The notes under the pieces were generated by a model. It saw nothing but the letters and a program-made list of their open reading frames with translations. It was not told where the DNA came from and did no database searches. From an uncultured Candidatus Saccharibacteria bacterium (GTDB lineage Bacteria > Patescibacteriota > Minisyncoccia > UBA6257 > JACOXY01), in the NCBI GenBank assembly GCA_964357615.1, contig CAYHMC010000007.1, forward strand, positions 4,896 through 68,895: a stretch of 64,000 bases of DNA. Direction: 5' to 3'. The position numbers and the translations under genes were made by a program. Below, one piece after another: positions 8,128-64,000 of this stretch; position 1 is the first letter of the stretch; each line of letters starts with the position of its first letter.

Positions 8128-8130
8128 AAT

Positions 8131-15913: not shown

Positions 15914-16834
15914 CTAAAATCTTATATCCCAGTGATTCGTCTCTCTGGCGTAAATATGTCCGGTGTTAGTATCTCTATACAAGGTAGCACCATCACTTCT
16001 AATTCCAGTCCTAACAAATCCATTAGCACCATTCCCAGTATTTCCTGCAATAAAGTTATCCACACAACTTGATAGTCTAAAATCTAATTTATTTCCACTC
16101 TGATGAGAATTCGGTCCAGTCGCATGTCCACCAGAAACTTCCGTGCCTCCAGTTATAACAATAGGACATCCACTCCTACTCTGAAAACTAACTGCTCCAC
16201 TTTGCGCAGATGTCGACAAGCCATCCAAACAAGTTTGTGGGCAATCATTATTAACTGTAATTTTTCCTCCGCTTGCGCTTAGCAATTGGGCTCTTATTAA
16301 ATTGCTTGCAGCTACATCATTACCTGTTCTACTTGTTGGTTGGGGTGCCCTACTACTATTAGGCAAAACAACTCCACCAGGTCCATTTGATGCTGTTAAT
16401 GTTTCTTCGGGTGGACAATCAATTTGATTCCACGGCTTACCAGTTACATTGTTTACTACAAGTAAATAAAAAACTTGATTAATAATGAGCCAAGAAACGA
16501 GCATTAAAATAACTCCTACTATAGCCCCAGTAATGGCACTTCTGCCTTGTTGGATTTTAGAAGGCATAGCTCCACCCAGCATTATTTGTATAGCACCGTA
16601 AGTAATAACAAGAACTGCCAAGATGGCGCCCACCTCAATCATATAGTTTGTGACTGTTTTGATTGTGTTTAGTCCATCGCAGAGGGTGCAATACTTAGTT
16701 CCGGGAGGAAAACTCAATGTTCCATGACACTGGTCTGGATCTATAATAGAAAAAGCATTTGTTGTAAAAGGTAGGAAGATGAGAAAAAGAAGCGGGAGGA
16801 GGAGAATTTTATTTTTGAGAAATATATTTTGCAT
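15914..16834 (-). CDS. Fusion protein: pilin-like N-terminal module plus C-terminal putative peptidoglycan peptidase domain
   Basis: 306 aa. The N-terminal ~165 aa has a signal peptide and two hydrophobic helices with a GG-containing loop (IQIMLGGAMPSKIQQGRSA), as in the pilin paralogs. It is identical to the N-terminus of the 16930..17985 product. The C-terminal domain contains SHQSGNKLD, an HxxGxxxD spacing reminiscent of M15-type peptidases; this assignment is weak. Confidence 0.45.
   Translation of the reverse strand: MQNIFLKNKILLLPLLFLIFLPFTTNAFSIIDPDQCHGTLSFPPGTKYCTLCDGLNTIKTVTNYMIEVGAILAVLVITYGAIQIMLGGAMPSKIQQGRSAITGAIVGVILMLVSWLIINQVFYLLVVNNVTGKPWNQIDCPPEETLTASNGPGGVVLPNSSRAPQPTSRTGNDVAASNLIRAQLLSASGGKITVNNDCPQTCLDGLSTSAQSGAVSFQSRSGCPIVITGGTEVSGGHATGPNSHQSGNKLDFRLSSCVDNFIAGNTGNGANGFVRTGIRSDGATLYRDTNTGHIYARETNHWDIRF
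16345..16810. repeat. Approx. 470 bp direct repeat, copy 1, identical to about 17495-17960. Encodes the shared pilin-like N-terminal module.
   Basis: The sequences run identically through ...ttcttcgggtggacaatcaatttgattccacggcttaccagttacattgtttactacaag.... The encoded amino acids are identical from KILLLPLLFLIF to GGVVLP. Boundaries are estimated by eye. Confidence 0.75.
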
Positions 16835-16929: not shown

Positions 16930-17985
16930 CTAAAAACATTTTCCAAAATTGCAGGCTTTGCCTTTTATAAAACAAGCATTATATCTTCCTTCTCCTGGCC
17001 TTATTGGACATCCCCATTTTGGAATTGCTGGCCATCCATCTGACACCTTACAATCAACGCTTGAGCCACTTTGTCTTATGCCAGCATTATAAATTGCGTA
17101 AGTTAATTCTTCGACAGTAGCGGCGTTTCCGTAGCGAGATTTTAGCGATTTTGCTGAGGAATATGCATCTGCCAAAACTTTGGTTCCTTGCTGAATATTT
17201 GTATCAGGATTTAATGAACAAGCACCGATTGGTTGCATTAAACCACAGCTTAATCCATCTACAGATCCAGCATTAGGATTACATCTAGACTCCATAGCAA
17301 TGATTGCCTTGATTAGAGATTCTGGAACATTGTATATGTCAGAATATTTAGCTATAGATGTTTGCCACGGTGAAGTATCGCATGTCGGACAAGACCCAAT
17401 ACCAGCGCATATTTGGCCACCACCAGAAAGCTGAGCTTTTGCAGCATTAACATCAGCACACGAATCTCCTCCGCCAGGAGGGGGACTACCGCCAGGCAAA
17501 ACAACTCCACCAGGTCCATTTGATGCTGTTAATGTTTCTTCGGGTGGACAATCAATTTGATTCCACGGCTTACCAGTTACATTGTTTACTACAAGTAAAT
17601 AAAAAACTTGATTAATAATGAGCCAAGAAACGAGCATTAAAATAACTCCTACTATAGCCCCAGTAATGGCACTTCTGCCTTGTTGGATTTTAGAAGGCAT
17701 AGCTCCACCCAGCATTATTTGTATAGCACCGTAAGTAATAACAAGAACTGCCAAGATGGCGCCCACCTCAATCATATAGTTTGTGACTGTTTTGATTGTG
17801 TTTAGTCCATCGCAGAGGGTGCAATACTTAGTTCCGGGAGGAAAACTCAATGTTCCATGACACTGGTCTGGATCTATAATAGAAAAAGCATTTGTTGTAA
17901 AAGGTAGGAAGATGAGAAAAAGAAGCGGGAGGAGGAGAATTTTATTTTTGCCTTTCATATATAAAATAAGTTTAACACAAAGCAA
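16930..17985 (-). CDS. Fusion protein: pilin-like N-terminal module plus C-terminal lytic transglycosylase (SLT, VirB1-like) domain
   Basis: 351 aa. The N-terminal module is identical to that of the 15914..16834 protein. The C-terminus contains AIIAMESRCNPNAGSVDGLSCGLMQP, the SLT-domain catalytic Glu-Ser and GLMQ motif. Confidence 0.6.
   Translation of the reverse strand: MLCVKLILYMKGKNKILLLPLLFLIFLPFTTNAFSIIDPDQCHGTLSFPPGTKYCTLCDGLNTIKTVTNYMIEVGAILAVLVITYGAIQIMLGGAMPSKIQQGRSAITGAIVGVILMLVSWLIINQVFYLLVVNNVTGKPWNQIDCPPEETLTASNGPGGVVLPGGSPPPGGGDSCADVNAAKAQLSGGGQICAGIGSCPTCDTSPWQTSIAKYSDIYNVPESLIKAIIAMESRCNPNAGSVDGLSCGLMQPIGACSLNPDTNIQQGTKVLADAYSSAKSLKSRYGNAATVEELTYAIYNAGIRQSGSSVDCKVSDGWPAIPKWGCPIRPGEGRYNACFIKGKACNFGKCF
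17495..17960. repeat. Approx. 470 bp direct repeat, copy 2, identical to 16345-16810
   Basis: See copy 1. Confidence 0.75.
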
Positions 17986-24612: not shown

Positions 24613-24623
24613 TTAAATAAAAA

Positions 24624-24660: not shown

Positions 24661-24681
24661 TGTGAATCAGAAACCCACTGA

Positions 24682-26478: not shown

Positions 26479-26512
26479 ACTAGGTACCTCGCCTAGTAGC
26501 AGTTGATGCGAA

Positions 26513-26564
26513 GGGGAGGCAGTAAGTTTCTAGCGCAAGCTAGAGCCTGCCTCCCCCTTTTTTT
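26513..26564 (+). terminator. Rho-independent terminator
   Basis: GGGGAGGCAG ... CTGCCTCCCC stem followed by TTTTTTT. Confidence 0.65.
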
Positions 26565-26910
26565 AAGAATTTTTAATTTTTGAATTTTTAAAAAAGGGAG
26601 TTAAGTCTCACAAGCTTAAAGTAATTCTGGATTTAATAGACCCTTTGCGCAATTAATTTCGTAGCGAGAATTCTGGATTTTCTGCGAGGCGAAGTAAAAA
26701 TTTTGAAGGTGTATACAAAGTTATACTTCAAGAAATTTTTACAAAGCCGTAGCTAAAATATGGAATTCGTTGTAGAAAAGTAATTGTGCAAAAGGTCTAA
26801 TATATTAGTTTGCGCTTGTGAAACTTGACAATCCCCATTCATTTTACGAAGGGACACAAACGCAGAAAAACCAGAAACAAAACTCGTAGCAAAGAGAGGA
26901 GAGAGTTCTG

Positions 26911-28359: not shown

Positions 28360-28378
28360 TTTTTAGAAAATTACACGA

Positions 28379-28432
28379 CCACCCGACATTATTAGCGTTA
28401 TGCTAAATCACTCGGGTGGATTTTTTATTTTT
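28379..28432 (+). terminator. Rho-independent terminator
   Basis: CCACCCGA ... TCGGGTGG stem with a long loop, followed by TTTTTTATTTTT. Confidence 0.5.
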
Positions 28433-31580: not shown

Positions 31581-31653
31581 GCGCCTGTAGCTTAGTGGCT
31601 AAAGCACCGAGCTTATACCTCGGGGATCGATGGTTCGAGTCCATCCAGGCGCA
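31581..31653 (+). tRNA. tRNA-Ile, anticodon TAT (UAU)
   Basis: 73-nt cloverleaf. Acceptor GCGCCTG/CAGGCGC, D-arm GCTT-AGTGGCTA-AAGC, anticodon stem CCGAG/CTCGG with loop CTTATAC, T-arm GATGG-TTCGAGT-CCATC. Discriminator A. A TATAAT box sits 10 nt upstream. Confidence 0.7.
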
Positions 31654-31686
31654 CACTTCGGCAAGCTTAGTGCGAGCCAAAGTTAT

Positions 31687-39026: not shown

Positions 39027-39049
39027 TTTAATAATTTTTTAATTTAATA

Positions 39050-49820: not shown

Positions 49821-51356
49821 ATGATAAATTTAATTGTAAAAAATAAATTTGCGTTTATATCTTTTGTTAGTGGATTTACATTGATGGCTGTTGAAATAAT
49901 TGCATCTAGAATAATTGCTCCGATTGTTGGGTCATCACTATATACTTGGACAGCCATTATTGGCATTGTACTTTTGGGAATTTCGCTAGGCAACTACTTT
50001 GGTGGAAAAACTATTGATAAAAATCCAACGCAAAAAGTTATATCTTACTCACTTATATCATCAGCAATTTCAATTTCTTTAATTCCGCTTTTAGCAATTA
50101 TTGTTGAACCTATAGTTTTTTGGAATATTAGTCTTTTGCTAAAAGTTTCTCTCATTGCTATATTTCTTTTCTTTCTCCCTTCCTTTTTTCTAGGCACTAT
50201 TTTCCCATCTATTATAAGACTAAACCTAAACATTCTTTCGAGTGCCGGTCAGAATGCAGGGATAATTTCTGGACTTGGAGCGCTTGGAAGTATATTCGGA
50301 ACTTTTTTTACAGGATTTTTTCTTATTGGTTTTATTGGAAGCTCTATTTCGCTATATATTTTAGCTACAATTCTAGTGTTAACTTCTTTTATTTTTAACC
50401 AAAATATCAAAAATACTTCCTTAGCATTCTTACTAATTCTAACAGTTTGGATTATATACTCATACCAAACAAACAAAAAAGAAAATCTTATATTTGAATC
50501 CGAAAGTAATTACTACAATATCAAAGTCGCAAAGACCACATACAATAACACTGATACAAAAGTTTTGTTTTTAGATCTCGACAGTCACTCGCTAGAGGGG
50601 ATGGATGACAAAAAAATTGGTATTTATCAAGAAATTTCTCCAATTTTAAATGCGTTTACCAAAGATATAAAAAATGCGCTTGTAATCGGCGGTGGCTCCT
50701 ATCAAATACCAAAAGACTTAGTTAGATTGTTTGGAGCGAATGTAACTGTTATTGAAATCGACCCAGAAGTTACAAGAACTGCGGACAATTTTTTTGATGC
50801 AAAAAAATATAATATGCAAACTCATAATCTAGATGGACGCTTATTCTTAAAAACAAATGGAAAAAAATATGATGTTATTTTTGCAGATGCATTTAATTCA
50901 TTTATATCAATGCCTTGGTATATGGCCACAGAAGAAAATTTTGAATTATCGAGAAAGTCTTTGAGTAAAAATGGAATTTATGCGCTAAGCTTAATTTCAA
51001 GCATCGACGAAAAATATAATAGGCTATATCAAAGCTTATTAAAAACCTTCGCTGAAGTTTTTGATAACTATACTGTTCTAGCTTTAGGAAAAGAAAACAA
51101 CGACATTCAAAATATTATTATAATTGGAAAAAATTCAGATGAAAAAATAGACGAAGAAAAACTTAATTTTTTTATTTCTGAGTTTGCCAAAGAAGAAAAG
51201 GGCGGTATGCGAGTTAAAGCTTTTTTACATCCAAATCCAAACGCAGATGCTATTGTCCTTAGAGACGATTTTGCGCCAGTTGAAAGATTGACTTCAAAAC
51301 TAGTGGATGGTTATATAAATCAATATACTCGTTGGGCCTATTCAATAATTAAATAA
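49821..51356 (+). CDS. Membrane-anchored spermidine-synthase-like (class I SAM methyltransferase-fold, PF01564-like) protein, paralog 1
   Basis: 511 aa with about 8 N-terminal TM helices. The C-terminal domain has ALVIGGGSYQIPKDLVRLFGANVTVIEIDPEVTRTA...DGRLFL...KYDVIFADAFNS, the spermidine-synthase Rossmann pattern. Confidence 0.6.
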   Translation: MINLIVKNKFAFISFVSGFTLMAVEIIASRIIAPIVGSSLYTWTAIIGIVLLGISLGNYFGGKTIDKNPTQKVISYSLISSAISISLIPLLAIIVEPIVFWNISLLLKVSLIAIFLFFLPSFFLGTIFPSIIRLNLNILSSAGQNAGIISGLGALGSIFGTFFTGFFLIGFIGSSISLYILATILVLTSFIFNQNIKNTSLAFLLILTVWIIYSYQTNKKENLIFESESNYYNIKVAKTTYNNTDTKVLFLDLDSHSLEGMDDKKIGIYQEISPILNAFTKDIKNALVIGGGSYQIPKDLVRLFGANVTVIEIDPEVTRTADNFFDAKKYNMQTHNLDGRLFLKTNGKKYDVIFADAFNSFISMPWYMATEENFELSRKSLSKNGIYALSLISSIDEKYNRLYQSLLKTFAEVFDNYTVLALGKENNDIQNIIIIGKNSDEKIDEEKLNFFISEFAKEEKGGMRVKAFLHPNPNADAIVLRDDFAPVERLTSKLVDGYINQYTRWAYSIIK

Positions 51357-51361
51357 AATAA

Positions 51362-53476
51362 ATGGAAAATAAAGTAGATTCACATAAGAATTTAACTCTG
51401 TATTTCGCAGTTTTTGTTTCTAGCACTGCTATTATGGCGCTAGAAATTTTAGGCTTTAGTATAATTTCGCCACACTTTGGAAATGGATTAGCTGTTACTT
51501 CGAATCTTATTGCGTTGGTACTATTGGGGTTAGCGTTAGGTTATTATCACGGCGGAAATATTGCTAATCAAAAATCAAACACAAAAACTCTATCGGATAT
51601 ATTTTTTTTAGTAGCAATTTATGTTGGTATAGTTTTTTCGCTTAGAGACCACATTAGCTCGTTTATAAGAGTGGCCATTCCAAGCATTCCAATTGGATCA
51701 TTGGTCACAATAACCATTCTTTTTGTTCCAATAAGTTTTTTCTTTGGAATTGTTTTACCATACTCAATTAAATTAGTGGTTAAAAATATTAAAAATTCCG
51801 GCAAATCATCTGGGGTAATTTATGCCCTTTCTTCTTTTGGTAGTATAACCGGCACATTAGTAGCTGGTTTCGTACTCATTCCATATTTCAGCTTAACCAA
51901 CTCTTTAACATTAATTATCGCTTTAATTTTACTTACTGGAATTTTTCTTCAGCCCAAAAAAGCTTATTTTCTTTTGTTTATTCCTGTTATTTATGGATCC
52001 TTGGAATTTACAAAAAACTATAATTTTGAAAAAGTTTTGTATGGCGGAAATTCAACCGCGTTTGAGGGCGCGATTAAACTCAATAGAGAAAAAATGGTTA
52101 AAATAGATGATATTTTTAGTCAGTATAATAGAATTCGTATTTACGAAGGAGTCGACGAAACAACCAACAGAAAACTCAGGTTGCTTAGGGTTAACAAAGA
52201 AATCCATTCTGGAACATTCTTAGACAGCAATGAATTAATTTTCAAATATGCGAAATTTAATAAATTAGCTGGACATTTTAATTCCAAAGCAAAAAAAGCA
52301 CTATTAATCGGTGGTGGTGGATATTCTTATGCTAAATTTTTTCTTGGCGACACTCCGCTTCATGACACGCTTAAAGAGTGGTCGTTAAATGGAAAAATTT
52401 ACTCAAATGACAACAAAGTAACCGTGCCGATACTTATATCATCGAATGCGGACTTGGTTTCCAAAAAAAGAATTTTGATTGGCGAATCGCTACTTAAACC
52501 ACTTGGTTCGGAGCTAGAAGGGACTAAAAATTTTCTTGAAGCCGAAAATCAATTTCTACAATCAGTAAACAAAACTTCGAGCTCTACTGTCATTGCAAAA
52601 AAAGCAGAAATATATGACACGGGACTACCCTGTAATGATGGTTATGTTCATGTTCACGAAATAAGCAAAAATGGAATGCCAGAGGATGGCAAAATTATCA
52701 GCCCAAACATACCAATTAACGCCGAGGTAAACAAACAGGGCCTTGTAATTGGCCACAGCAAACTATTTACTGGAGCAACGACATCTATATCAATTACTCT
52801 TGATAGAAAAATTAAAGATAACGAAGTTCTAAATGTGATGTTGCACCGAGATAATTGCAATGGGAGATTTGACCCAATATTAGTCGATGGCTACGAAAAA
52901 ATAGAATCTCTGGATGTTGTAGAAATTGATCCCAAGATGCGAGAGGTGGCAGTAAAATATTTCGGCTTAATCGAAAACGACCCAAGGCTAAAAATATTCG
53001 AAGAGGATGGCAGAACTTATATAAATAACACAAAAGAAAAATATGACAATATTTATATAGATGCGATGTTGAGTTTTTATAGTATGCCATATCAATTAAC
53101 TACAACAGAAGCAATAAGTCGCCTGTACAATATCTTAAACGATAACGGCTTGGTAATTGTAAACATTCCAGGAGCACTAACTGGTGAATATAGTAAATTT
53201 TTTCAAGCTGAATATTTAACTTATAAAAAAATCTTTCCTGTTGTGCAAGCATATGCAGTCTCTTCATTAGAAAAAGAAACTACTATTCAAAACATAGTGT
53301 TAATTGCATTTAAAGCGGATAAAATAAGAGAAACTTTAAATGACGAACAAGAGATTAGTGCCATGCTAGATAATGCCTGGAGGGGAAGCGTAGAGAAAGA
53401 AACTCCGATATTAACAGACGACTATGCTCCAGTAGATTATTTTAATAATGCCCTTGTAAATATACCGACATTATAA
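51362..53476 (+). CDS. Membrane-anchored spermidine-synthase-like protein, paralog 2, with a large insertion
   Basis: 704 aa. The N-terminal TM domain is homologous to paralog 1. The C-terminal region has ALLIGGGGYSYAKFFLGD ... VEIDPKMREVAVKYFGL ... EDGRTYI ... YDNIYIDAM. Confidence 0.55.
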   Translation: MENKVDSHKNLTLYFAVFVSSTAIMALEILGFSIISPHFGNGLAVTSNLIALVLLGLALGYYHGGNIANQKSNTKTLSDIFFLVAIYVGIVFSLRDHISSFIRVAIPSIPIGSLVTITILFVPISFFFGIVLPYSIKLVVKNIKNSGKSSGVIYALSSFGSITGTLVAGFVLIPYFSLTNSLTLIIALILLTGIFLQPKKAYFLLFIPVIYGSLEFTKNYNFEKVLYGGNSTAFEGAIKLNREKMVKIDDIFSQYNRIRIYEGVDETTNRKLRLLRVNKEIHSGTFLDSNELIFKYAKFNKLAGHFNSKAKKALLIGGGGYSYAKFFLGDTPLHDTLKEWSLNGKIYSNDNKVTVPILISSNADLVSKKRILIGESLLKPLGSELEGTKNFLEAENQFLQSVNKTSSSTVIAKKAEIYDTGLPCNDGYVHVHEISKNGMPEDGKIISPNIPINAEVNKQGLVIGHSKLFTGATTSISITLDRKIKDNEVLNVMLHRDNCNGRFDPILVDGYEKIESLDVVEIDPKMREVAVKYFGLIENDPRLKIFEEDGRTYINNTKEKYDNIYIDAMLSFYSMPYQLTTTEAISRLYNILNDNGLVIVNIPGALTGEYSKFFQAEYLTYKKIFPVVQAYAVSSLEKETTIQNIVLIAFKADKIRETLNDEQEISAMLDNAWRGSVEKETPILTDDYAPVDYFNNALVNIPTL

Positions 53477-54140: not shown

Positions 54141-54971
54141 TTGAATCATAAATTCAAAAAAATACAACCACAAATGCAAAAACTAGGCCAACATTTTTTA
54201 AAAGATAAATCTGTTTTAGAAAAAATAATTACAGCAATTGATTTTGGAATCAACGAAAATATAATTGAGGTTGGCCCAGGTCATGGAGAACTCACAAATC
54301 TTATTGTAAGGGAGTTAAAAAAAAATAATGGGAAATTGGTAATGATTGAGAAAGATAGCAAGCTATTTTTAGAACTGCAGGAAAATTTCAATAATTCTAA
54401 TCACATTATCTTAGAAGGCGATGCTTTAAAGATTGTACCAAAGCTAGTAGACAGCAAAGAATTTAAAAATAAAAAATACAAAATAGTAGGCAATATTCCA
54501 TACTATATAACTGGATACCTCCTTAGGGTAATTGGCGAATCTAAGTCAAAACCTCAAATATGCGTGTTCACAATTCAAAATGAAGTAGCAGATCGAATAA
54601 ATGCTAAACCACCACATATGAATTTGCTTGCGGCCTCGGTTCAAATATGGGCTGATACAAAAATTATTTCTAGAGTTCCACGCGGAGCATTTAGCCCACC
54701 GCCAAAAGTACAAAGTGCTGTTATAAAACTCACAACTAAAACAATGGGGATTCCAAAAAGTGATTTACTTAATTACTATAAATTTTTACACACAATATTT
54801 AAACAGCCGAGAAAAACCATATTAAACAATTTGGTGTCTGGTTTAAATAAAAATAGAGAAGAATTAGTTTCTGGCCTTATTCAGCTTAATTTAGACCCTA
54901 TTATTAGACCGCAAAACTTAAAAATTGAAGAAATAATCAAACTTTTTGAATTATTTTACAAAAATGATTAG
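54141..54971 (+). CDS. rsmA: 16S rRNA (adenine1518-N6/adenine1519-N6)-dimethyltransferase
   Basis: LGQHFLKD, VGPGHGELT and GNIPYYITG are KsgA/RsmA signature motifs. Confidence 0.85.
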   Translation: MNHKFKKIQPQMQKLGQHFLKDKSVLEKIITAIDFGINENIIEVGPGHGELTNLIVRELKKNNGKLVMIEKDSKLFLELQENFNNSNHIILEGDALKIVPKLVDSKEFKNKKYKIVGNIPYYITGYLLRVIGESKSKPQICVFTIQNEVADRINAKPPHMNLLAASVQIWADTKIISRVPRGAFSPPPKVQSAVIKLTTKTMGIPKSDLLNYYKFLHTIFKQPRKTILNNLVSGLNKNREELVSGLIQLNLDPIIRPQNLKIEEIIKLFELFYKND

Positions 54972-55057: not shown

Positions 55058-55933
55058 ATGTTAATCTATGTGAAAAAGTTCACCGTTTTCGCACTTATTT
55101 CAGTGGGTGCGAGCTTTGTACTCTTCTTATTTTTTGGTAATGCTAACCCAACAATCAACTCATTTGATGTTTTGGGGAACAAAAATATCTCGCTATCCGG
55201 ACAATCTCAGCCAACTGGCATATTCAATAGATTTATTGATGGTGCATCAATGGTGCTTGGCATCAGTAGCTCAAACACAACGGCTAATAATAGCATCGAC
55301 CAAATAAACAATGTATCAAACCTAACCGAAATCTTTGCGAAGCTTATTGCCGGTAAAATGATCGAGGGTAATCCTAATGGATCGCAACAAATCGGTGGGC
55401 AAGAATCATTTATTTTACCAGGCAACTTAAATTTGGCAGACCCAGGACTTCAACAAAAAATGATTGCGTATAAAAATGAAGCATTATCTCCCTTCGTTGA
55501 CATAAAAAAATTTAATACAACAGAAACAACAAAGAAAGAAGATCTTACTAAATACATCCTACTTATTCATAGCAGCTACAGAGAAATTGTTGATATGGCT
55601 GAACACAATTTTAATGCTGATTCTTTCGGCGATGTTATAAAAAATTATTTAGTCCTTGGTCAAATTTCTGAAAAATATTTAAGCGCGCTCTACAGCATTC
55701 AAGTACCCACAGTTTTAATTGATTTTCATAAAAAAATAACAATGGCTAGTGAAGCTCAAAAAAATATTGCTTTTGCATTACTTGACCATAAAAATGATCC
55801 GCTTAAGGCAAGTATGGTTGGTGAACTTCAAGAAGAATTAAATGCGCTATATATTAAACTTGCAAAAGAAGAAATAGGGCTTGTAGCAAAATTAGAAATA
55901 CCAGTCAATCTAAAACTTTTAATTTCGGAATAA
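55058..55933 (+). CDS. Hypothetical secreted protein
   Basis: 291 aa with a signal peptide/TM segment (FTVFALISVGASFVLFLFF). No recognised family. Confidence 0.4.
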   Translation: MLIYVKKFTVFALISVGASFVLFLFFGNANPTINSFDVLGNKNISLSGQSQPTGIFNRFIDGASMVLGISSSNTTANNSIDQINNVSNLTEIFAKLIAGKMIEGNPNGSQQIGGQESFILPGNLNLADPGLQQKMIAYKNEALSPFVDIKKFNTTETTKKEDLTKYILLIHSSYREIVDMAEHNFNADSFGDVIKNYLVLGQISEKYLSALYSIQVPTVLIDFHKKITMASEAQKNIAFALLDHKNDPLKASMVGELQEELNALYIKLAKEEIGLVAKLEIPVNLKLLISE

Positions 55934-55941: not shown

Positions 55942-57363
55942 ATGCTTAAGAATACAATTATAATTTTATTACTGTTTTCAATTAGTATCGCCTCCGTTGT
56001 GCCACGCACAGCACATGCCATTCCAGTGCTTGATTTACCAGATATAGCAGCAAATGTAGGCAAATGGATTCTCGGACAAATTGAAGCTCAATATAAAAGA
56101 GCTTTGGATAAATGGTTTCAATATGTTTGGAAAGTACTTTTGGAAGAATTTAAGCTTAAAGTTTTAGATATTTTAAATGAGCAAATAGTGAGTTGGATTA
56201 CCGAGGGTGAAAATGAAGTAGCTAAATTTATTGGAAATTGGGAAACATATCTAGGCGGAGCTTATAAATATGGCTACAATAGCGTCGGCGGTGAACTTAG
56301 ACTGTCTACTATGTGTGGTCAATTTAAAGACGCTATCGTAAATACAAATTGGGAATTTTCAGACCAACCAGCAACCTTAAATTCATTGTTTGTAGATAAA
56401 GTAAATTGCTCACTAGACCCACTTTTAGCAAACTTAGGCACCACAATACAAGATTATCAAAAAGATTTTAGAAATGGTGGTTGGATTGCATACCGAGAGC
56501 AAAAAATGAAACTTCAAAATACTTATTTGGGTTCTTATTTTCTTGCATCAGACGAAGCTATTAGTCGTGGTCGCACAAAAGAAAACGCAGCCCTACAACA
56601 AGGTGTGGCGAGTAAAGGTTTTATTCCGGTAAAACGCTGTATCGAGGATTTAGCGCCTGGTGCTGCTGGACCACCAAATCCAAACGCTTGCGCAGAATTT
56701 CAAATTACTTCTCCAGCTTCAGTTTTTGAAAGTGCATTGGATGCTGCCACACAAGGAAGATTTAGTTATGTTATAAATGCAGATCAAATGGTTCAGATGG
56801 TACTCGTTGTTGCTGAATCATTTGCAAATAAATTAATTAAGTCCGGCGTGGATGGGTTATTTAATTATGGGGGAGGAAACACTCCGTCTAGCGGATATGT
56901 AGATAACACTTCAGCAAACGATTGCTTAGCACTCGACCCAACAGGAGAACTCTGCAGACATCAAGCGGGGTCCGGACCAACCGCTTCTGGTGTTCCCCAA
57001 GATGCGAAACAAGATGGCGGAACATGTACAGCGAATACTGATTGCTTTTCTACAATCTGTGGAGCTGGAGGAGTATGTATTTCTCCGGTTTCAAACGGTT
57101 CTGGTTGTAATGAAAATCGCGAATGTAAGTCAAGTTTATGCGGTCCAACAAACACTTGCATTGATACCTTGGCAAATGGCGCTGGCTGTAATCAAGATTA
57201 CCAGTGCCGAACAGGTTACTGCTCTCCATCAACTAATAAATGTGCCGATGTGCCACCCGCAAATGAAGGCTTATTAGGAGGTCCCTGCAAACAACCAGGG
57301 TCCACCTGCAATTCTGGCGCAAGATGTAATTTCTCGACATTCATTTGTGTTCCAGTAATATAA
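55942..57363 (+). CDS. Secreted protein with four C-terminal Cys-rich modules, adjacent to the T4SS-like genes (candidate surface or pilus-associated adhesin)
   Basis: 473 aa with a signal peptide. Repeats GGTCTANTDCFSTICGAGGVC, GSGCNENRECKSSLCGPTNTC, GAGCNQDYQCRTGYCSPSTNKC, GGPCKQPGSTCNSGARCNFSTFIC. Confidence 0.45.
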   Translation: MLKNTIIILLLFSISIASVVPRTAHAIPVLDLPDIAANVGKWILGQIEAQYKRALDKWFQYVWKVLLEEFKLKVLDILNEQIVSWITEGENEVAKFIGNWETYLGGAYKYGYNSVGGELRLSTMCGQFKDAIVNTNWEFSDQPATLNSLFVDKVNCSLDPLLANLGTTIQDYQKDFRNGGWIAYREQKMKLQNTYLGSYFLASDEAISRGRTKENAALQQGVASKGFIPVKRCIEDLAPGAAGPPNPNACAEFQITSPASVFESALDAATQGRFSYVINADQMVQMVLVVAESFANKLIKSGVDGLFNYGGGNTPSSGYVDNTSANDCLALDPTGELCRHQAGSGPTASGVPQDAKQDGGTCTANTDCFSTICGAGGVCISPVSNGSGCNENRECKSSLCGPTNTCIDTLANGAGCNQDYQCRTGYCSPSTNKCADVPPANEGLLGGPCKQPGSTCNSGARCNFSTFICVPVI

Positions 57364-57436
57364 ATTATTTTCTAAGCTAGGTTACCCTACCAACCGCAAA
57401 AAAATAATCGCTAATAAAATTTCTAAAATTCAAATA

Positions 57437-59626
57437 ATGTTTTACTCTTTAAAAAAATACTTAAATAAATACAGAAATTCTCTAATTTTTTTGGTTTTTT
57501 TGTTTTTGGTTGTGGGGACTGTTTTTGTTTCTTATCCAAATGATGTTTTGGCTGCAGTTAGTATTGACGGCGCTGGAAATGACGGCAAAACTCTTCCGCC
57601 CTCAGATACTGCTGGTTGTGGCGAAGGAATTACAAGCTTTTTAGAAATTGGATGTTTAATTGCAAGAATTAATGGGTGGATTGGATGGGCTGCTGGATGG
57701 ATGATTATGCTTGTTATGTCGATACTAGAAATTGCCCTTGAAATCAATGGTAAGGTTTTACAACTACCCGCAGTACAATTAGGATGGAGTTTTACTCGTG
57801 ATGTAGCAAACATGGGTTTTGTTCTTGGAATGATTGTTATTGCTTTTGCCACTATACTTCGAAGCCAATCTTATGGAGTTAAACAACTAATAGTTAGATT
57901 AATTGTTGCCGCTGTTGCCGTAAACTTGAGCCTTAGCGTGGCGGGCGTTTTTATGGATGTGGCGGCAATTCCTACTCAGTTTTTTATGGACAAAATAACA
58001 GGGCCACTAGATAGTGGTCCAGGTGGCTTTTCTAAAACACTAAGCGCAGCTTTTAACATTCAAAACATAGAAACTATTAATGTAACTTCCCAAACCACAC
58101 TTAGTGGAACCGCAAAGGCAACCGGCATTGTTGCGAGTGTCTTTTTCTCGTTAATTTTTTCATTTGTAATCTTGATAACTCTAATGACTCTGACTTATAT
58201 GTTTCTTCATAGATTCATTGCTTTAGCCATTTTAATGATCTTAATGCCACTTGCAATACTTTCCTGGGTTTTTCCTGGGTTGCGTGGAAGATGGAGTACA
58301 TGGCTCGGAAAATTTATGCAGTGGACTTTTTTTGCACCAATTTCTATGTTCTTTCTGCACTTGGCAGTCTACACCGTGAAAGCCCAAGGTGGTTATATTA
58401 CTAGCGCCGCAAACACATTAAAAACAGCGGCACTTGGTTCTGGAACAGCTTTTGAACAATCAATTTTAATTGGAACAAATGACCCAGTATTGCTTGTGAC
58501 AAATATGGTTTTAATGGTTCTACTAACATTGGGTGGATTGTTTGCCGCTCAATCAATGAGCATACAGGGAGCTTCGTACGGAATGAAATTAGCAACATCT
58601 GGATCGCAAAGAATCTTAAGGGGTGGAACAACTGTACCAGCAGCAGCAGTTGGTCGTTGGGCTGGAAATCGCGCTATGACATATGGATCTACGGTTGGTG
58701 AAGATGGGAAATCTACCACAAATTCGTACGCACAAAGTATGGCAACTAGACTAGCCTCAGTAAAAGTTGCGGGCATGAACGTGGGACGCTTCTTTAGTGG
58801 CGCCTCTGAAAAAATTAATAAAAAAGTTACTGAGGTGCAGAAGGGCGCCGAGGAACAGCGCACGCGTTTTGACACTCAAACAAAAAGCTATAGAGCTGCG
58901 ACTCTTGATCGCCTAACCACCGTGGCAAACCCAGAAATGGCTTCTGGATTACTACTCGCCATGGCAAAGAAAGGTGAGCTTCGCGACGCCGACCCAGAAA
59001 AACAAAAGGCAATAGACGAGAAAATTACAGAGCTTTTGGGCAAGCTTATTGAGACGAATAGCGGAAAAGAATTCGCTAGCTATTTGCCAGAATACGCAAG
59101 TGTGCTTGGTCAAGAAATTAGTAAAATTATGCCGAAAACAAACACTGAAACTTATGCCGAGATGAAAGCCAGCACATTTAAGTCAGATAGTGGTGATTCA
59201 GGCAGGGATAAAGCCGCGACTGACGCAGTTCTTTATGCTTCATCTTCGGGGCTTAAAACAATTGCTGACCGCAACCCTGAAGCTGTTGGTGAAATAATGA
59301 AAACATTTGAAAAAATTAGATTAAGTTTTGAGGGATTTGATGAAGCAAAAACGCGCAAAGACATAGCCGACAATGCTAACTCGACGGACGAAAAAGTAAA
59401 AGAGCAGGTCAAAGCGGATAACAAAAAACTACTGGAATACTCTCGCTACAGAACTCAAAAAGAAATACTTTATACTGACCCTGGTTTTTCTGGTGCTGCG
59501 GTTAATCAAAAAACGGTAGAATCCTTCCGTGATGAAAGATTTGCGAGAATGAATGGTGGCGGTGGCAACCAAAAGAGAACAGAAAAACCCGAAAATCTTG
59601 ACGAGCGTGGCCGAAGAATGAATTAA
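57437..59626 (+). CDS. VirB6/TrbL-like polytopic inner-membrane protein of a type IV secretion/conjugation system, with hydrophilic C-terminal extension
   Basis: 729 aa. Signal/TM segment, then at least seven further hydrophobic helices (GWIGWAAGWMIMLVMSILEIAL, MGFVLGMIVIAFATIL, LIVAAVAVNLSLSVAGVFMDV, VFFSLIFSFVILITLMTLTYMFL, IALAILMILMPLAILSWVF, WTFFAPISMFFLHLAVYTV, LLVTNMVLMVLLTLGGLFAAQ). A ~340-aa charged tail follows, as in TrbL. Confidence 0.55.
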   Translation: MFYSLKKYLNKYRNSLIFLVFLFLVVGTVFVSYPNDVLAAVSIDGAGNDGKTLPPSDTAGCGEGITSFLEIGCLIARINGWIGWAAGWMIMLVMSILEIALEINGKVLQLPAVQLGWSFTRDVANMGFVLGMIVIAFATILRSQSYGVKQLIVRLIVAAVAVNLSLSVAGVFMDVAAIPTQFFMDKITGPLDSGPGGFSKTLSAAFNIQNIETINVTSQTTLSGTAKATGIVASVFFSLIFSFVILITLMTLTYMFLHRFIALAILMILMPLAILSWVFPGLRGRWSTWLGKFMQWTFFAPISMFFLHLAVYTVKAQGGYITSAANTLKTAALGSGTAFEQSILIGTNDPVLLVTNMVLMVLLTLGGLFAAQSMSIQGASYGMKLATSGSQRILRGGTTVPAAAVGRWAGNRAMTYGSTVGEDGKSTTNSYAQSMATRLASVKVAGMNVGRFFSGASEKINKKVTEVQKGAEEQRTRFDTQTKSYRAATLDRLTTVANPEMASGLLLAMAKKGELRDADPEKQKAIDEKITELLGKLIETNSGKEFASYLPEYASVLGQEISKIMPKTNTETYAEMKASTFKSDSGDSGRDKAATDAVLYASSSGLKTIADRNPEAVGEIMKTFEKIRLSFEGFDEAKTRKDIADNANSTDEKVKEQVKADNKKLLEYSRYRTQKEILYTDPGFSGAAVNQKTVESFRDERFARMNGGGGNQKRTEKPENLDERGRRMN

Positions 59627-59662
59627 GTTATGTAAAAAGTGTAAAGTAATTTTATTAAAAGT

Positions 59663-60853
59663 ATGAATAATTCAATAACCCTTAAAAATATTCCACCAGA
59701 AATTCGTTCTTGGCTTGCATCGGCCGCAACAGCGGACGAAATAAGACGAATAAATGTTGAACTTAACTTACAGGAAAACGACATAGTGTTTATTCCTTTT
59801 CTTATTTTTAAACTAGCCTCAAAGGATATTGAGCCAGCGAACTTTGCTCAAGAATTAAGCGATTGGATTAGTATACCCATTGGATCAGCGCGCACGATTG
59901 CTGCGGAAATTAAGGAAAAAATTCTTACACCTATTGCTTCGCCTCTTAAAGAGTTTGGGGTTGACATAAGTCTTATAAGCCAAGTAGAAGATTCAATTAA
60001 ACACCCTGTTATTGCTCCAATACCACCTCCGCCACCAATAAAAATATCCTACCAACCACCACCACCTCCGGCTATGGGTGGATCAATTAATACAAACTTG
60101 GGTGGTGGAGCAGTTGTTGAAATTCAAAAAACTAAAGGAAAAATTCACATTATTGGTGATGCTCACGAACATAGCGCCAATGAAAAAATTGCAGTCGATG
60201 ATGGTGTTATTGCTCCTTTAATTAATCAAAAAAATATTGCTCAAAATTTACCGGTATCTCCCGCGCTAAAAGAAGAAAAACACTCAGCGTGGCCACCCGC
60301 ACCACAACCAACCAACCAAACAAAGCCAGAAATTAAAAAAACGGCCGCTGAAACCAATACAGAAGGGGAGGCTGTTCCATTTATCCTACACAAAGAAACT
60401 CCATTTACTCCAGTTTTAAAGGAACATGAGTGGAAACCGCCCGCCATGAATAAGCCACTAACTAGCACTCCACCTTTTAAACCAAGCGCAAATGCTAGCT
60501 TCACTGCAATCAAACCTCCACCACAAGGACCTGTTGTGCCCGTAATTCCAGGAACAAACTTTAACCCACAACAAAAAATTACTCCACCTGCACCACCAAA
60601 CAACTTATCCTCGGGACTACCAAAAAAAATCGTGGAGTTACCTAGGATTGTAAATTTTGATGCCGACAGTAATTTGCCAAATGCGCCTATAAGCAAAAAT
60701 CCAATTGTAAATCTTAAAGCCGAACCTCAAAAAACTGATATGAAAACACCTCACAATCTAAACCAAGAACTTGTAAAACCAAGTGTGGCTCCAGTTAAGC
60801 CACAACTCGAGCCAACACCAAGCACAAAAAACAATACAGTAGACTTAAGGTAA
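59663..60853 (+). CDS. Proline-rich hypothetical protein within the T4SS-like locus
   Basis: 396 aa. APIPPPPPIKISYQPPPPPAM and many PP/PxP stretches. No recognisable catalytic domain. Confidence 0.4.
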   Translation: MNNSITLKNIPPEIRSWLASAATADEIRRINVELNLQENDIVFIPFLIFKLASKDIEPANFAQELSDWISIPIGSARTIAAEIKEKILTPIASPLKEFGVDISLISQVEDSIKHPVIAPIPPPPPIKISYQPPPPPAMGGSINTNLGGGAVVEIQKTKGKIHIIGDAHEHSANEKIAVDDGVIAPLINQKNIAQNLPVSPALKEEKHSAWPPAPQPTNQTKPEIKKTAAETNTEGEAVPFILHKETPFTPVLKEHEWKPPAMNKPLTSTPPFKPSANASFTAIKPPPQGPVVPVIPGTNFNPQQKITPPAPPNNLSSGLPKKIVELPRIVNFDADSNLPNAPISKNPIVNLKAEPQKTDMKTPHNLNQELVKPSVAPVKPQLEPTPSTKNNTVDLR

Positions 60854-60888
60854 ATAGTTTTCTTAAATTTTATCGGTTAGATTAAACT

Positions 60889-61572
60889 ATGGCACAGTTT
60901 CAAGTTCCACAATTTATTGAGATTGAACAAAAAATTATTGGCGGAGCATTTACTATGCGCCAATTCTTAATAATGGCCTTGGGTGCAGGTTTGGTTTTTT
61001 TACTTTTTTTGGTATTAAACTTTATTGTTTGGGTGTTTTTTGCAGTTATTATTGGAGTTGGAATTTTTGCCGTGGCCTTTTTGAAAGTAAGTGGTAGATC
61101 ATTTGGCCTTTTGCTTAAAGCTGCTTTTTTTTACTATTGGAATCCATCTTTTTATCTCTGGAAATCAGAAGATGAATACGGGGTTAAAATACCAGAAACC
61201 AAACAAATCAAAACTACCAACCCCGAATCCACAGAAGAAAATAGCTCTCAAACAGTAACCACAAGAAGATTTGGTGTTTTTTCAAAACCAGAAAATAGAC
61301 TACAAATCAACGACAAAACAAAAGAATCGCCGAAAAATTCTAAACCAAGCTATGATTCAAAGTCTCTTAATCACAAAGAAACAAGAGAAAAACTAAAAAT
61401 TGGAGATCAAATTCAAAGCTTGTGGGAAAAAATCTCCACAACAAAAGACTTAATTCCAAAGCGAGAAAATAGAATGAATCCATTTCAAAAAGAAAGAGCA
61501 GAGGCGGGTTACGAAGCTATGAGACGATCAACCGGAGAAGTTGAAATGGCAAAACGGGTTGATTTTACGTAG
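60889..61572 (+). CDS. PrgI/VirB3-like small membrane protein of a T4SS
   Basis: 227 aa. MAQFQVPQFIEIEQKIIGGAFTMRQFLIMALGAGLVFLLF... resembles the PrgI-family N-terminus (M..V..DI...KI.GLT.RQ). There are two TM helices. It sits immediately upstream of VirB4, the canonical VirB3-VirB4 order. Confidence 0.55.
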   Translation: MAQFQVPQFIEIEQKIIGGAFTMRQFLIMALGAGLVFLLFLVLNFIVWVFFAVIIGVGIFAVAFLKVSGRSFGLLLKAAFFYYWNPSFYLWKSEDEYGVKIPETKQIKTTNPESTEENSSQTVTTRRFGVFSKPENRLQINDKTKESPKNSKPSYDSKSLNHKETREKLKIGDQIQSLWEKISTTKDLIPKRENRMNPFQKERAEAGYEAMRRSTGEVEMAKRVDFT

Positions 61573-61646
61573 TCGCTAATCATTAAAACATTTTATTAGG
61601 GGAGGGTATTTAATCGAAAAAACCATTTATCTGGTATACTACTACT

Positions 61647-62282
61647 ATGGCAACAGAAGAATCTCTACCATCACAAGATTTTATCGCAATCAGTGAAATT
61701 AAAAACGATGTAATATATTTAAAAAACGGAGGAATTCGAAAAGTACTTCTTGTCTCTGGAATTAATACAGAACTAAAATCTGAAGACGAACAAAATACAG
61801 TCTACTTTCTATTTCAAAATTTTTTAAATAGCGTAGACTTTCCGCTTCAGTTTGCAGTTCATTCGCGCAAATTAAATGTAAATGGATATCTTGCGTATCT
61901 AGAAACTCGTCGAGTCGCAGAAACAAACGAACTACTAAAAAGTGGCATAGAGGAATACATTGAGTTCGTTAAGTCATTCGTTCAAGAAAATGCAATTATG
62001 ACAAAAAATTTTTTTGTAGTTGTTTCTTATAATCCACTTATAGCTTCCTCAAAAACAAGCTTGGCAAGCTCAATACCGATTATTGGTAAAAAAATGGGTG
62101 GGGATGACAAACAAAAAAATGAGACTGAAATGATTGAACAACTCACACAAAGGACAGAACAAGTTACTTCGGGACTGCATGGAATTGGACTTCGAGCTAT
62201 AGCTTTAAATAGTAGCGAACTAACTGAATTATTTTTTAATCTCTACAATCCAGAAACCATCGAGAAAAAACTTTCTCAATAA
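61647..62282 (+). CDS. VirB4/TrbE/CagE family N-terminal domain, encoded as a separate ORF
   Basis: 211 aa. DFIAISEIKNDVIYLKNGGIRKVLLVSGINTELKSEDEQNTVYFLFQNFLNSVDFPLQFAVHS matches the CagE/TrbE/VirB N-domain pattern (report, then LNSLDFPIQI). It terminates at a TAA, 39 nt before the ATPase ORF. Confidence 0.6.
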   Translation: MATEESLPSQDFIAISEIKNDVIYLKNGGIRKVLLVSGINTELKSEDEQNTVYFLFQNFLNSVDFPLQFAVHSRKLNVNGYLAYLETRRVAETNELLKSGIEEYIEFVKSFVQENAIMTKNFFVVVSYNPLIASSKTSLASSIPIIGKKMGGDDKQKNETEMIEQLTQRTEQVTSGLHGIGLRAIALNSSELTELFFNLYNPETIEKKLSQ

Positions 62283-62321
62283 TTTTAAAAATTGGTTATT
62301 TAAATATTTAACAAAAACGAT

Positions 62322-64000
62322 ATGGAAAAAGATGCTAAAAACTTAATCGCTCCGGCCGCCGTAAAAGTTAATCCCAATAATATGAAAATTGGGGACAAGT
62401 ACATTAAAACCCTTTTTGTGTTTGCATATCCGCGCACCCTAGTTTCGGGTTGGTTAAACCCAATAATTAATGTTCCTGAACTTTTGGATATTTCAATTTT
62501 TATGCACCCAGTCGATACTTCAGTAGCCTTAAAAAATCTAATGAAAAAGGCGGCCAGGTTAGAGGCGGAATTAATTGAACATCAAGAAAAGGGGCTAGTT
62601 CGAGACCCACAACTTGAAACCGCATATAAAGATGTTGATATGTTACGAGATGCGCTTCAACAAGCAAGAGAAAAACTTTTCAATGTTGGGCTGTATGTAA
62701 CAATTTACGCTGACTCTGTTGAGGCTTTAAATAAATTAGAGGCAAAAATTACTGCAATGTTCGAGAATCAACTTGTGTATGTTAAAAATGCTATTTTTCA
62801 AGAAAACGAGGGATTTACTGCCACATTGCCATTGGGCAACGACGAACTTTACATTAATAAACCTATGAACTCTGGGCCACTTTCGAGTTTTTTCCCTTTT
62901 ATTTCAACCGATCTTACTAGCGACAAAGGAATAATGTACGGCTTAAACCGACACAATAGCACCTTAGTTATATTTGATAGATTTTCTTTAGAAAACGCCA
63001 ACACCGCAATCTTTGCAAAATCAGGAGCGGGCAAATCTTATGCAGCTAAATTAGAAATACTTAGAATGCTAATGACGGGTACGGATGTTTTAGTTATAGA
63101 CCCAGAAAATGAATATGAAATGTTAGCAAATGCAGTAGGTGGAACAATTTTTAAAATCGGGCTCCACTCAAAAGACCACATTAATCCACTAGATATTCCA
63201 CCAATACCAGAAGACGAAGTTCCTGGCGAGGTTTTAAAGTCACATATATTAAATTTAACTGGCCTTCTTAAGTTAATGTTAGGCAAAATCACCTCAGAAG
63301 AAGACGCTATTTTAGACCAGGCTCTTACCGAAGTTTACGCGGCTCGTGGAATTACTGCCGACCGTGACTTTAGAAATCTAGAACCACCTAGGCTTCAAGA
63401 TTTTCGAGTTGTTCTTGAAAACATGTCTGGTGGACGCGACCTAGCCCAAAGATTATATAAATTCACGGATGGTAGTTTTGCTGGTTTTGTAAATCAACCA
63501 ACCAGCGTTGATGTTAAAAACCGCTTTATTGTTTTTTCAATCAGAGACCTCGAAGAAGAGCTGAGACCGGTTGCTATGTATATAATTCTAAACTTTGTGT
63601 GGAACCTTGTTAGGTCCGAACTAAAAAAGAGAGTTATTGTTTTGGATGAGGCGTGGTGGATGATGCAACACGAAGAAGGAGCTAGATTTTTATTCGGCTT
63701 AGTTAAGCGTGCGCGTAAATATTATCTAGGCGTGACAACAATAACTCAGGATGTTGAGGATTTTATTAGCTCGCCTTACGGCAGACCCGTAATAACAAAT
63801 TCGTCGTTACAATTATTATTACAACAGGCACCAGCCGCAATTGACGCCGTTGCAAAAACTTTTTCACTTACTACCATTGAAAAAAATCTTTTAGTTGAGG
63901 CGGAACCAGGGCATGGAATATTTTTTGCAGGACTTCGCCATGTTGCTATTCAGATTATTCCCTCTTATTTTGAAAATAAAATTATAACTACAAATCCAGA
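62322..64000 (+). CDS. VirB4-like T4SS ATPase domain, partial (continues beyond window end)
   Basis: My translation from ATG 62322. Walker A FAKSGAGKSY, Walker B VIVLDEAWWMM, GVTTITQDVEDF and NSSLQLLLQQ, the VirB4 sensor and C-motifs. The frame is open to position 64000. It is not in the ORF track, presumably because no stop is reached. Confidence 0.75.
   Translation, partial: MEKDAKNLIAPAAVKVNPNNMKIGDKYIKTLFVFAYPRTLVSGWLNPIINVPELLDISIFMHPVDTSVALKNLMKKAARLEAELIEHQEKGLVRDPQLETAYKDVDMLRDALQQAREKLFNVGLYVTIYADSVEALNKLEAKITAMFENQLVYVKNAIFQENEGFTATLPLGNDELYINKPMNSGPLSSFFPFISTDLTSDKGIMYGLNRHNSTLVIFDRFSLENANTAIFAKSGAGKSYAAKLEILRMLMTGTDVLVIDPENEYEMLANAVGGTIFKIGLHSKDHINPLDIPPIPEDEVPGEVLKSHILNLTGLLKLMLGKITSEEDAILDQALTEVYAARGITADRDFRNLEPPRLQDFRVVLENMSGGRDLAQRLYKFTDGSFAGFVNQPTSVDVKNRFIVFSIRDLEEELRPVAMYIILNFVWNLVRSELKKRVIVLDEAWWMMQHEEGARFLFGLVKRARKYYLGVTTITQDVEDFISSPYGRPVITNSSLQLLLQQAPAAIDAVAKTFSLTTIEKNLLVEAEPGHGIFFAGLRHVAIQIIPSYFENKIITTNP

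Follow-up and report, generated by a model that had tools for sequence, protein, structure and literature searches.

The stretch of DNA analysed here, 64,000 nucleotides of contig CAYHMC010000007.1 from an uncultured member of the Patescibacteriota (the window), carries at its right-hand end genes of a type IV secretion system (T4SS). This locus very likely represents the chromosomal T4SS of the Patescibacteria clade, nested in the monoderm mating-pair-formation class MPF-FATA, in its Paceibacteria arrangement. T4SSs of this kind have already been published (PMC12102498, PMC10633639, PMC12857230), and the locus is a typical Paceibacteria example. In Paceibacteria, the system is a fixed 12-gene chromosomal block between rsmA and yidC-rnpA/dnaA. 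The same 12-gene order, from rsmA to dnaA, is found in about 45 Paceibacteria species genomes, which indicates a vertically inherited chromosomal system and not an integrative conjugative element (ICE). An initial annotation of the window had recognised the core of a T4SS of the Gram-positive type, with the order PrgH-PrgI-PrgJ and devoid of conjugation genes, in a reduced genome of the episymbiont type. This view is supported, but the system had also been called minimal, which it is not, since relatives show a conserved block of 12 genes.

From position 55058 to the end of the window, seven genes follow each other in tight packing. Neighbouring open reading frames (ORFs) of the T4SS are only 8-74 nt apart, which gives the locus an operon-like appearance; scans of the locus for promoters and terminators yielded counts that were not above those in shuffled sequence. 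The guanine-cytosine (GC) content of the locus is 0.37-0.41 and thus near that of its surroundings. The genes are the following (lengths in amino acids, aa).

55058..55933, + strand: Protein A (291 aa), a bitopic membrane protein that opens the conserved T4SS block
55942..57363, + strand: Protein B (473 aa), secreted, with C-terminal Cys repeats
57437..59626, + strand: Protein C (729 aa), a putative extended VirB6/TrbL-like polytopic membrane protein
59663..60853, + strand: Protein D (396 aa), Pro-rich, without transmembrane (TM) segment
60889..61572, + strand: PrgI/VirB3-like membrane protein (227 aa), Pfam PrgI PF12666, with a long hydrophilic C-terminal extension
61647..62282, + strand: TrsD-like protein (211 aa), the VirB4 N-terminal domain in a gene of its own
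62322..64000, + strand: VirB4 ATPase body, 559 of about 571 aa inside the window, truncated at the window end

All ORFs called at this locus by the initial annotation were recovered on the + strand with the same coordinates. It had let the locus start at 55942; the genes from there on stand, but the conserved block begins one gene earlier, at 55058. Immediately upstream of the block lies rsmA, also named ksgA (RsmA, 54141-54971).

The continuation of the locus can be followed in two relatives, L006 and L007, of which the VirB4 proteins are 96% and 82% identical to that of the window. In both, virB4 is followed by the genes d1, d2, d3 and d4; beyond these lie jag-yidC-rnpA in the opposite orientation, with dnaA and dnaN next. 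The initial annotation had advised inspecting the DNA downstream of 64000 for conjugation genes; in the relatives, four genes of the system and the yidC-rnpA and dnaA-dnaN housekeeping genes are met there, and no ICE. By analogy with L006 and L007, the block in the window's own genome is probably also proximal to dnaA.

For a broader view of the synteny, one genome was taken per GTDB species, resulting in 80 Paceibacteria loci, and the ORFs were searched with iterated profiles. Upstream genes were counted in the 45 loci that extend 9.5 kb or more to the upstream side: PrgI occurs in 44 of these, C in 42, B and D in 41 each, and A and rsmA in 38 each. In the 48 loci that extend as far to the downstream side, d4, yidC and rnpA occur in 46 each, and d2, d3 and dnaA in 45 each. 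Between the end of VirB4 and dnaA, the distance has a median of 5.1 kb. VirB4 itself is 55-70% identical among lineages such as Wolfebacteria, Harrisonbacteria, Liptonbacteria, Kaiserbacteria and Zambryskibacteria, and this degree of identity between Paceibacteria lineages argues for strong purifying selection. A clear definition of the conserved 12-gene block and its borders is a useful outcome of this analysis.

Most ultra-small Patescibacteria (the candidate phyla radiation, CPR) have a chromosomal T4SS cluster near dnaA, as described between 2023 and 2025. In a survey of 3,035 genomes by Quiñonero-Coronel et al. (2025), the Patescibacteria VirB4 proteins form a monophyletic clade within MPF-FATA. 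In this survey, TrsD, PrgI/VirB3, VirB6 and VirB2-like proteins are widespread in Patescibacteria while relaxases are rare, and the Paceibacteria T4SS lies near dnaA, dnaN, rnpA, ksgA and rpmH (PMC12102498).

Components of the system and the distal pilin cluster

Pfam was searched with 51 ORFs of the window, which include every annotated gene of 90 aa or more apart from those for GyrA, an S1-domain protein and RsmA. The VirB4 assignment of the initial annotation is borne out by matches of the ATPase ORF to P-loop_TraG (E 7e-24), AAA_10 (E 1e-13) and DUF87 (E 6e-9), but virB4 had been taken for a single gene and consists of two ORFs. A 39-nt spacer with three TAA stops divides the 211-aa ORF (61647-62282) from the ATG of the ATPase at 62322. 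The identical split into a 211-aa protein and a separate ATPase gene recurs in five independent assemblies, with Hainich groundwater among their sources, and an assembly error is therefore ruled out. Among the best 120 homologues, the ATPase measures 566-609 aa in 113 and is fused, with a length of 783-807 aa, in the other seven; a fused VirB4 is found in two of the 80 Paceibacteria species loci. Given the length of the unfused homologues, the window end removes no more than about 12 aa of VirB4. Between the start codons of the TrsD-like gene and the ATPase gene, the offset modulo 3 equals 0 for the window, 1 for L006 and 2 for L007. Since this offset varies among relatives, the two are independent genes, and neither read-through nor a recent nonsense mutation is involved.

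TrsD is the published name for proteins of the 211-aa type, and a remote similarity to the VirB4 N-terminus has been noted (PMC12102498). By comparison with fused homologues and by its fold, "TrsD" is the N-domain of VirB4 split off into its own gene. Over its full length, the 211-aa protein is 47% identical to residues 1-216 of a fused VirB4 of 792 aa (E 3e-64), and a precomputed match to PF26593 (TraC-like) is on record. In an AF2 model (predicted local distance difference test score, pLDDT, 66), the top 14 matches among PDB structures are all chains of R388 TrwK/VirB4, with probabilities of 0.99-1.0, followed by a sharp fall. In a complementary way, the ATPase aligns with residues 224-772 of PrgJ from pCF10 (27% identity, E 2e-42), so that precisely the N-domain is missing from the ATPase ORF. 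The match to R388 TrwK is far weaker (E 1e-5). The identity to the best 120 homologues is 65-96%, and those with a named source are all assigned to Patescibacteria lineages or to "bacterium". In these sequence comparisons, the VirB4 of the window appears to group with Patescibacteria VirB4s, closer to MPF-FATA than to the diderm classes.

The 227-aa protein matches PrgI PF12666 over residues 10-80 (E 2.2e-7; 31.7 bits, with a cut-off of 27). Protein C combines seven hydrophobic segments with a hydrophilic C-terminal tail of about 330 aa. TrbL PF04610 is matched by 6 of 24 syntenic orthologues of Protein C, only one of which, from L066, exceeds the curated cut-off (E 6.2e-6; 26.6 bits versus 25.9; profile positions 17-209 of 215). 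In L007, which has the closest orthologue (37% identity), the match to TrbL reaches E 0.003. Furthermore, in an hhalign screen of 10 block families against 23 T4SS proteins of pCF10 and R388, the sole pair above 5% probability is that of the Protein C family with TrwI/VirB6, at the family-invariant segment R259-P301; the screen is of low power because the templates were single sequences. The comparison of Protein C with PrgH gave a probability of 4.6%, and a Protein C profile found no relative in PDB, only coiled-coil noise in the tail. Protein C is accepted as a putative "extended" VirB6 by transitive homology. The initial annotation had made its reading dependent on profile searches for VirB4 and VirB6: VirB4 and PrgI are recognised directly, VirB6 by the transitive route. 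For VirB7, VirB9, VirB10 and VirB11, there is neither a Pfam match nor an hhalign match to TrwH, TrwF, TrwE and TrwD, and no VirB5 was detected among the block families with Pfam and hhalign.

The other parts of the block have no established names. Protein A has a single N-terminal TM segment; a bacterial TSP3 (Ca-binding) repeat is present in 11 of 25 orthologues, while the window copy has no Pfam or PDB match. Protein B has a hydrophobic, signal-like N-terminus and contains 4.7% Cys, concentrated in the C-terminal repeats. A conserved N-terminal domain (approximately residues 55-330) is followed by a Cys-repeat module that varies by lineage, and the C-termini of some orthologues carry PKD repeats, InlB-type repeats or coiled coils instead. 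Defined by the conserved N-terminal domain, the family has 5147 members at E<=1e-3, each representing a 50%-identity cluster, and its gene lies directly 5' of the VirB6-like gene in the Paceibacteria loci examined. Neither a Pfam model nor a solved structure exists for this family; profile searches of PDB with 22 and 137 sequences were empty for the conserved domain, and two word-index searches gave 11-12 matches each. An AF2 model from 13 sequences is poor (pLDDT 56), and with Foldseek it finds nothing in PDB below E 0.69; there are only faint knottin-like matches to the Cys repeats. Identity with VirB5 (TrwJ) was considered and dropped at an hhalign probability of 1.9%. Protein B is a candidate surface or tip component, with its variable C-terminus as a candidate host-contact module. 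Being very large, uncharacterised, secreted and tied to a T4SS, the family deserves a family definition and a structure.

Protein D contains 14.9% Pro and zero hydrophobic segments; its conservation is chiefly N-terminal, in a domain of about 100 aa, and it has no Pfam match. The downstream genes are described from L006 and L007. There, d1 encodes a small membrane protein with 2-4 TM segments, d2 a protein of 230-350 aa, d3 a PF18895 pilin module with a variable extension, and d4 a protein of about 400 aa. Ig-like or BiPBP_C domains are matched by 9 of 22 d2 orthologues, and PD40 beta-propeller repeats by some d4 orthologues.

At 12.9-18 kb, the initial annotation had placed candidate pilins and a VirB1-like transglycosylase, which is confirmed by matches to T4SS_pilin PF18895 and to SLT. 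This cluster consists of the following genes.

12887-13234, 13484-13831, 14140-14487, 14706-15026, 15036-15425 and 15466-15813, all - strand: six VirB2-like T4SS pilin genes (PF18895)
15914..16834, - strand: pilin-module fusion (306 aa), PF18895 E 3e-7, C-terminal domain uncharacterised
16930..17985, - strand: pilin-module fusion to SLT (351 aa), SLT PF01464 E 4.8e-10, PF18895 E 2.9e-7

The likely real start of the pilin-SLT fusion is the ATG at 17958. Five of the six small ORFs pass the PF18895 cut-off (E 7e-8 to 3e-10), and together with the two fusions seven genes of the cluster do so; one small ORF also weakly matches TrbC/VirB2. No significant PF18895 match is obtained with the sixth (14706-15026), which resembles its neighbours in architecture and shares 33-38% identity with them. 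All six combine a signal peptide with two TM helices. The cluster shows signs of recent internal duplication: paralogues 1 and 3 are 90% identical as proteins and 88% as DNA, paralogue 2 is about 60% identical to both, and the remaining ones 24-49%. Each of the duplicated spacers upstream of pilins 1 and 3 holds a perfect DnaA-box 9-mer (13363, 14563).

The two fusion proteins carry an identical N-terminal pilin module of 152 aa (99% DNA identity) and differ in their C-terminal domains. A common 5' module with different enzyme domains suggests module swapping. From its SLT domain, the 351-aa fusion is predicted to have a VirB1-like lytic transglycosylase activity. The C-domain of the 306-aa fusion has no Pfam or PDB sequence match; from a motif of the type HxxGxxxD...ExxHW, it could at a guess be an M15-type peptidoglycan peptidase. 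These fusions of a pilin module, which anchor wall hydrolases in the membrane, are a practically useful detail.

The initial annotation had stressed that about 40 kb separate the core locus from its pilin genes. The distal cluster is real, but this emphasis is overstated, because the block has its own pilin-domain gene, d3, past virB4 in relatives. Small-pilin arrays within 10 kb of virB4 occur in none of the 80 species loci, where d3 alone is present. Thus, a distal array looks normal for Paceibacteria.

Possible role and alternative readings

On the basis of the machines of R388 and pCF10, it is possible to propose how the system may work. A VirB4 hexamer would be docked at the membrane via the separate N-domain, the PrgI/VirB3 protein and the VirB6-like protein, and would draw VirB2-like pilins out of the membrane, polymerising them to form a pilus or conduit that crosses the monoderm wall. 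This wall might be opened locally by the membrane-anchored SLT protein and the second pilin-fused enzyme. The extracytoplasmic, wall-spanning part could be built from A, B and D together with the downstream proteins d1, d2 (with Ig-like repeats) and d4 (with its beta-propeller), and the variable C-terminus of B, here knottin-like Cys repeats, would make contact with the host. Such a machine would serve host-cell contact and a transfer of macromolecules to or from the host that does not depend on a coupling protein, and not conjugation.

A role other than conjugation had already been put forward in the initial annotation and is supported as probable, as no conjugation genes are found in the window or in the loci of relatives. 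Conjugation is very unlikely. Import of host material and export of proteins are each conceivable as the main role, neither being favoured over the other, and adhesion only is a good deal less plausible. In a 2026 preprint on a cultivated member, uptake of host RNA is described, as well as tubular structures that reach the host and are possibly T4SS pili (10.64898/2026.06.21.733656). It could be imagined, though this is a doubtful proposition, that A, B, D, d1, d2 and d4 make up an undescribed envelope-spanning T4SS of monoderms, with a B-tipped VirB2-type pilus that imports host macromolecules such as RNA and with the detached VirB4 N-domain serving as a switch in regulation or assembly.

Among the alternatives, the one that survives best, although improbable, is a dedicated DNA-uptake machine of the ComB type, which would import environmental or host DNA without a coupling protein and feed it to ComEC. 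ComB of Helicobacter pylori is an importing T4SS that lacks a coupling protein, and at the present locus, too, neither a coupling protein nor a relaxase was found nearby. ComM is encoded in the window (43159-44712), but 11 kb from the locus and with unrelated genes between. In the class ABY1, the T4SS lies beside comF, recG and radA (PMC12102498). In Southlakia, in contrast, deletion of comEC ends competence and not viability, while the T4SS is essential, and competence needs type IV pili (PMC10633639, PMC12857230). Moreover, the ComB parts of the VirB8/9/10 type were not detected in the hhalign screen.

A much poorer fit is the mating-pair-formation module of an ordinary ICE or integrated plasmid, of which the relaxase, coupling protein and integrase would lie past the window. 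The VirB6-VirB3-VirB4 order is that of prgH-prgI-prgJ in pCF10, the nearest conjugative type of the VirB4 is MPF-FATA, and a tyrosine recombinase is encoded at 33447-34349. Yet this is the only recombinase in the window; it is XerC/D-like and lies 21 kb off, beyond housekeeping genes. Relaxase and coupling-protein domains are absent from the Pfam results for the window ORFs, which confirms what the initial annotation had stated on relaxase and VirD4, and the +/-10 kb loci of relatives have no relaxase, coupling protein or integrase within the block or next to it. Elsewhere the window has a housekeeping character, with Pfam matches to nusA, ftsH, rpsO, pnp, comM, uvrD/pcrA and an M23-LysM peptidase, and with GyrA (19663-22131), the S1-domain protein (23476-24555) and RsmA named from their sequences. 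The borders are equally unlike those of a mobile element: rsmA on the left in 38 of 45 loci, and on the right d2-d3-d4, yidC, rnpA, dnaA and dnaN in 45-46 of 48. The same holds for a VirB4 identity of 55-70% combined with a class-wide fixed synteny. Taken together, these borders, the lack of relaxase and coupling protein and the background-like GC content give a negative answer to the ICE that the initial annotation had considered. Hardly credible either is that an ancient conjugative system is decaying here and has lost its function: in-frame stop codons break up VirB4, and VirB8, coupling protein and relaxase are not seen, but the two-gene VirB4 is the norm in thousands of homologues with both halves highly conserved, the varying start-codon offset indicates independent genes, all genes of the block remain intact in 38-46 of the species loci with sufficient flank (45 or 48), and the homologous Southlakia system is essential (PMC10633639).

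A chromosomal Patescibacteria-clade T4SS with a role in host contact is therefore preferred over these alternatives, and several points have to be set against it. The window stops about 12 aa before the stop codon of VirB4, and the genes downstream are deduced from relatives, of which L006 is just 80% identical to the window at the nucleotide level; a 59-mer taken from the end of the window had no exact match in JGI metagenomes. The window copy of Protein C has no match to TrbL or to any other Pfam family. No VirB8-like part was recognised when the block families were compared by hhalign with PrgL, PrgD and TrwG, single-sequence templates that missed even the PrgI-PrgI pair. The placement of VirB4 comes from pairwise comparison. 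The absence of VirD4 applies to the window and the loci of relatives, and the literature reports a VirD4 homologue elsewhere in the genome for most Patescibacteria.

Other features of the window

Just 5' of rsmA and the T4SS block, at 49821-53476, lies a tandem pair of paralogues of 511 and 704 aa, each with a spermidine-synthase-like domain in its C-terminal half. A 196-aa polytopic membrane protein is encoded beside this pair on the opposite strand. In the relatives, the T4SS block points towards yidC-rnpA/dnaA and would thus be oriented head-on to replication if oriC is located at dnaA.

An ORF-free stretch of 2.3 kb (8584-10900; GC about 0.25) is situated beside a tRNA-Leu gene. It includes, at 8811-10413, 14 copies (with at most one mismatch) of the 16-bp palindrome TGTTTAnCGnTAAACA, against a chance expectation of 0.39 per whole window; several copies stand in a 36-bp tandem register. 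The palindrome matches the parS consensus TGTTNCACGTGAAACA in 12-14 of 16 positions. Similar arrays with a spacing of 36-37 bp occur in seven metagenome contigs (L093-L099), and none was found near dnaA in the T4SS relatives. Three lone copies with two mismatches are located at or beside gene boundaries (29387, 34933, 46260). The stretch may represent a ParB array that acts like a centromere, a region with an origin or iterons, or a set of operators.

The strand switch at 23132-23476 separates the left genes (1-23.1 kb), all on the - strand, from the right genes, nearly all on the + strand, and coincides with the minimum of the cumulative GC skew. As the skew tracks the coding strand, it cannot place the origin. 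There is no cluster of DnaA boxes at this switch, and in the window as a whole DnaA boxes with at most one mismatch are not enriched (23 found versus 18 expected).

An island at 24600-28400 is rich in GC (0.47-0.50 versus about 0.35 elsewhere) and may be horizontally acquired. It encodes a membrane/coiled-coil protein of 152 aa and a metallo-beta-lactamase/beta-CASP nuclease, and contains an ambiguous pair of overlapping ORFs of about 305 aa on opposite strands, with an Arg/Gly-rich tail. A permissive Rfam search of the high-GC region at 24.4-27 kb gave sub-threshold noise only. At 26638-26799 there is a non-coding element of 163 nt that has the look of a miniature inverted-repeat transposable element; its terminal inverted repeats (TAGACCCTTTGCGCAATTA ... 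TAATTGTGCAAAAGGTCTA) measure about 20 nt. A copy with 82% identity is present in the rpmH-dnaA spacer of L007 (17356-17518), a member of the Liptonbacteria of which the coding DNA is about 70% identical to the window, below the value for the element.

ARAGORN finds a tRNA-Ile with the anticodon TAT (UAU) at 31581-31654. This tRNA is uncommon in bacteria, where AUA is usually read by a lysidine-modified CAU tRNA. Large ORFs without Pfam family occur at 3353-8583 (692, 155, 738 and 150 aa) and at 37986-41185 (346 and 711 aa), the sole match being a weak Ig-like one in the 738-aa protein. These runs may encode lineage-specific surface proteins.

Comparison with known type IV secretion systems

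The diderm MPF-T systems (Agrobacterium VirB, R388 Trw) have in common with the present one VirB2-type pilins, a VirB6/TrbL protein, the fold of the VirB4 N-domain and a VirB1-like hydrolase of the SLT type. They differ in VirB5, VirB7, VirB9, VirB10 and VirB11, which were not detected here, and in a VirB4 that is much more distant (E 1e-5). Helicobacter ComB and Bordetella Ptl resemble it in functioning without a VirD4 partner near the locus, as reported for Ptl and for Brucella (PMC12857230). They demonstrate that import or export by a T4SS is possible in the absence of a coupling protein. These are diderm machines with VirB8/9/10 cores, whereas the sequence relation to the present system is limited to VirB4 and VirB6. 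This likeness may concern a way of working and not membership.

Closer are the monoderm MPF-FATA systems, PrgH-PrgI-PrgJ of pCF10 and TrsC-TrsD-TrsE of pGO1. They share the order VirB6-VirB3-VirB4, a PrgJ to which the VirB4 is 27% identical, a monoderm architecture without VirB7/9/10 and, as in pGO1, a separate TrsD-type protein (PMC12102498). In contrast to these, the present locus has no adjacent relaxase, coupling protein, PrgK-type multi-domain hydrolase or PrgB-type adhesin, it comes with VirB2-like pilins, which are absent in Gram-positive conjugative systems, and it is not on a mobile element.

With the published T4SS of the Patescibacteria clade, there is no essential difference. VirB4 with an adjacent TrsD, PrgI/VirB3, VirB6 and PF18895 pilins, including arrays, are found in both, as are the lack of a relaxase and the chromosomal position near dnaA/dnaN/rnpA/rpmH/ksgA. 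Wang et al. (2023) described the unusual T4SS of Southlakia epibionticum (SEML1_0006-0019) and demonstrated by transposon sequencing (Tn-seq) that it is essential for epibiotic growth; its pilin array is inside the cluster, and coupling and relaxase proteins are not recognisable (PMC10633639). Both the T4SS and the pilin genes are essential in this organism, while a coupling-protein homologue and comEC are dispensable (PMC10633639, PMC12857230). The Patescibacteria T4SS is the sole T4SS known to be essential for the growth of its owner and the sole monoderm T4SS known to have VirB2-type pilins, which makes this class of systems important. Where the Southlakia array lies inside the cluster, that of the window is about 40 kb from the core, and two of its paralogues are 90% identical, as compared with a reported within-array maximum of 54%. 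To the published descriptions, the analysis adds the recognition of TrsD as the detached VirB4 N-domain, a fixed order of 12 genes with six unnamed conserved parts, and fusions of the pilin module to SLT and to an uncharacterised domain.

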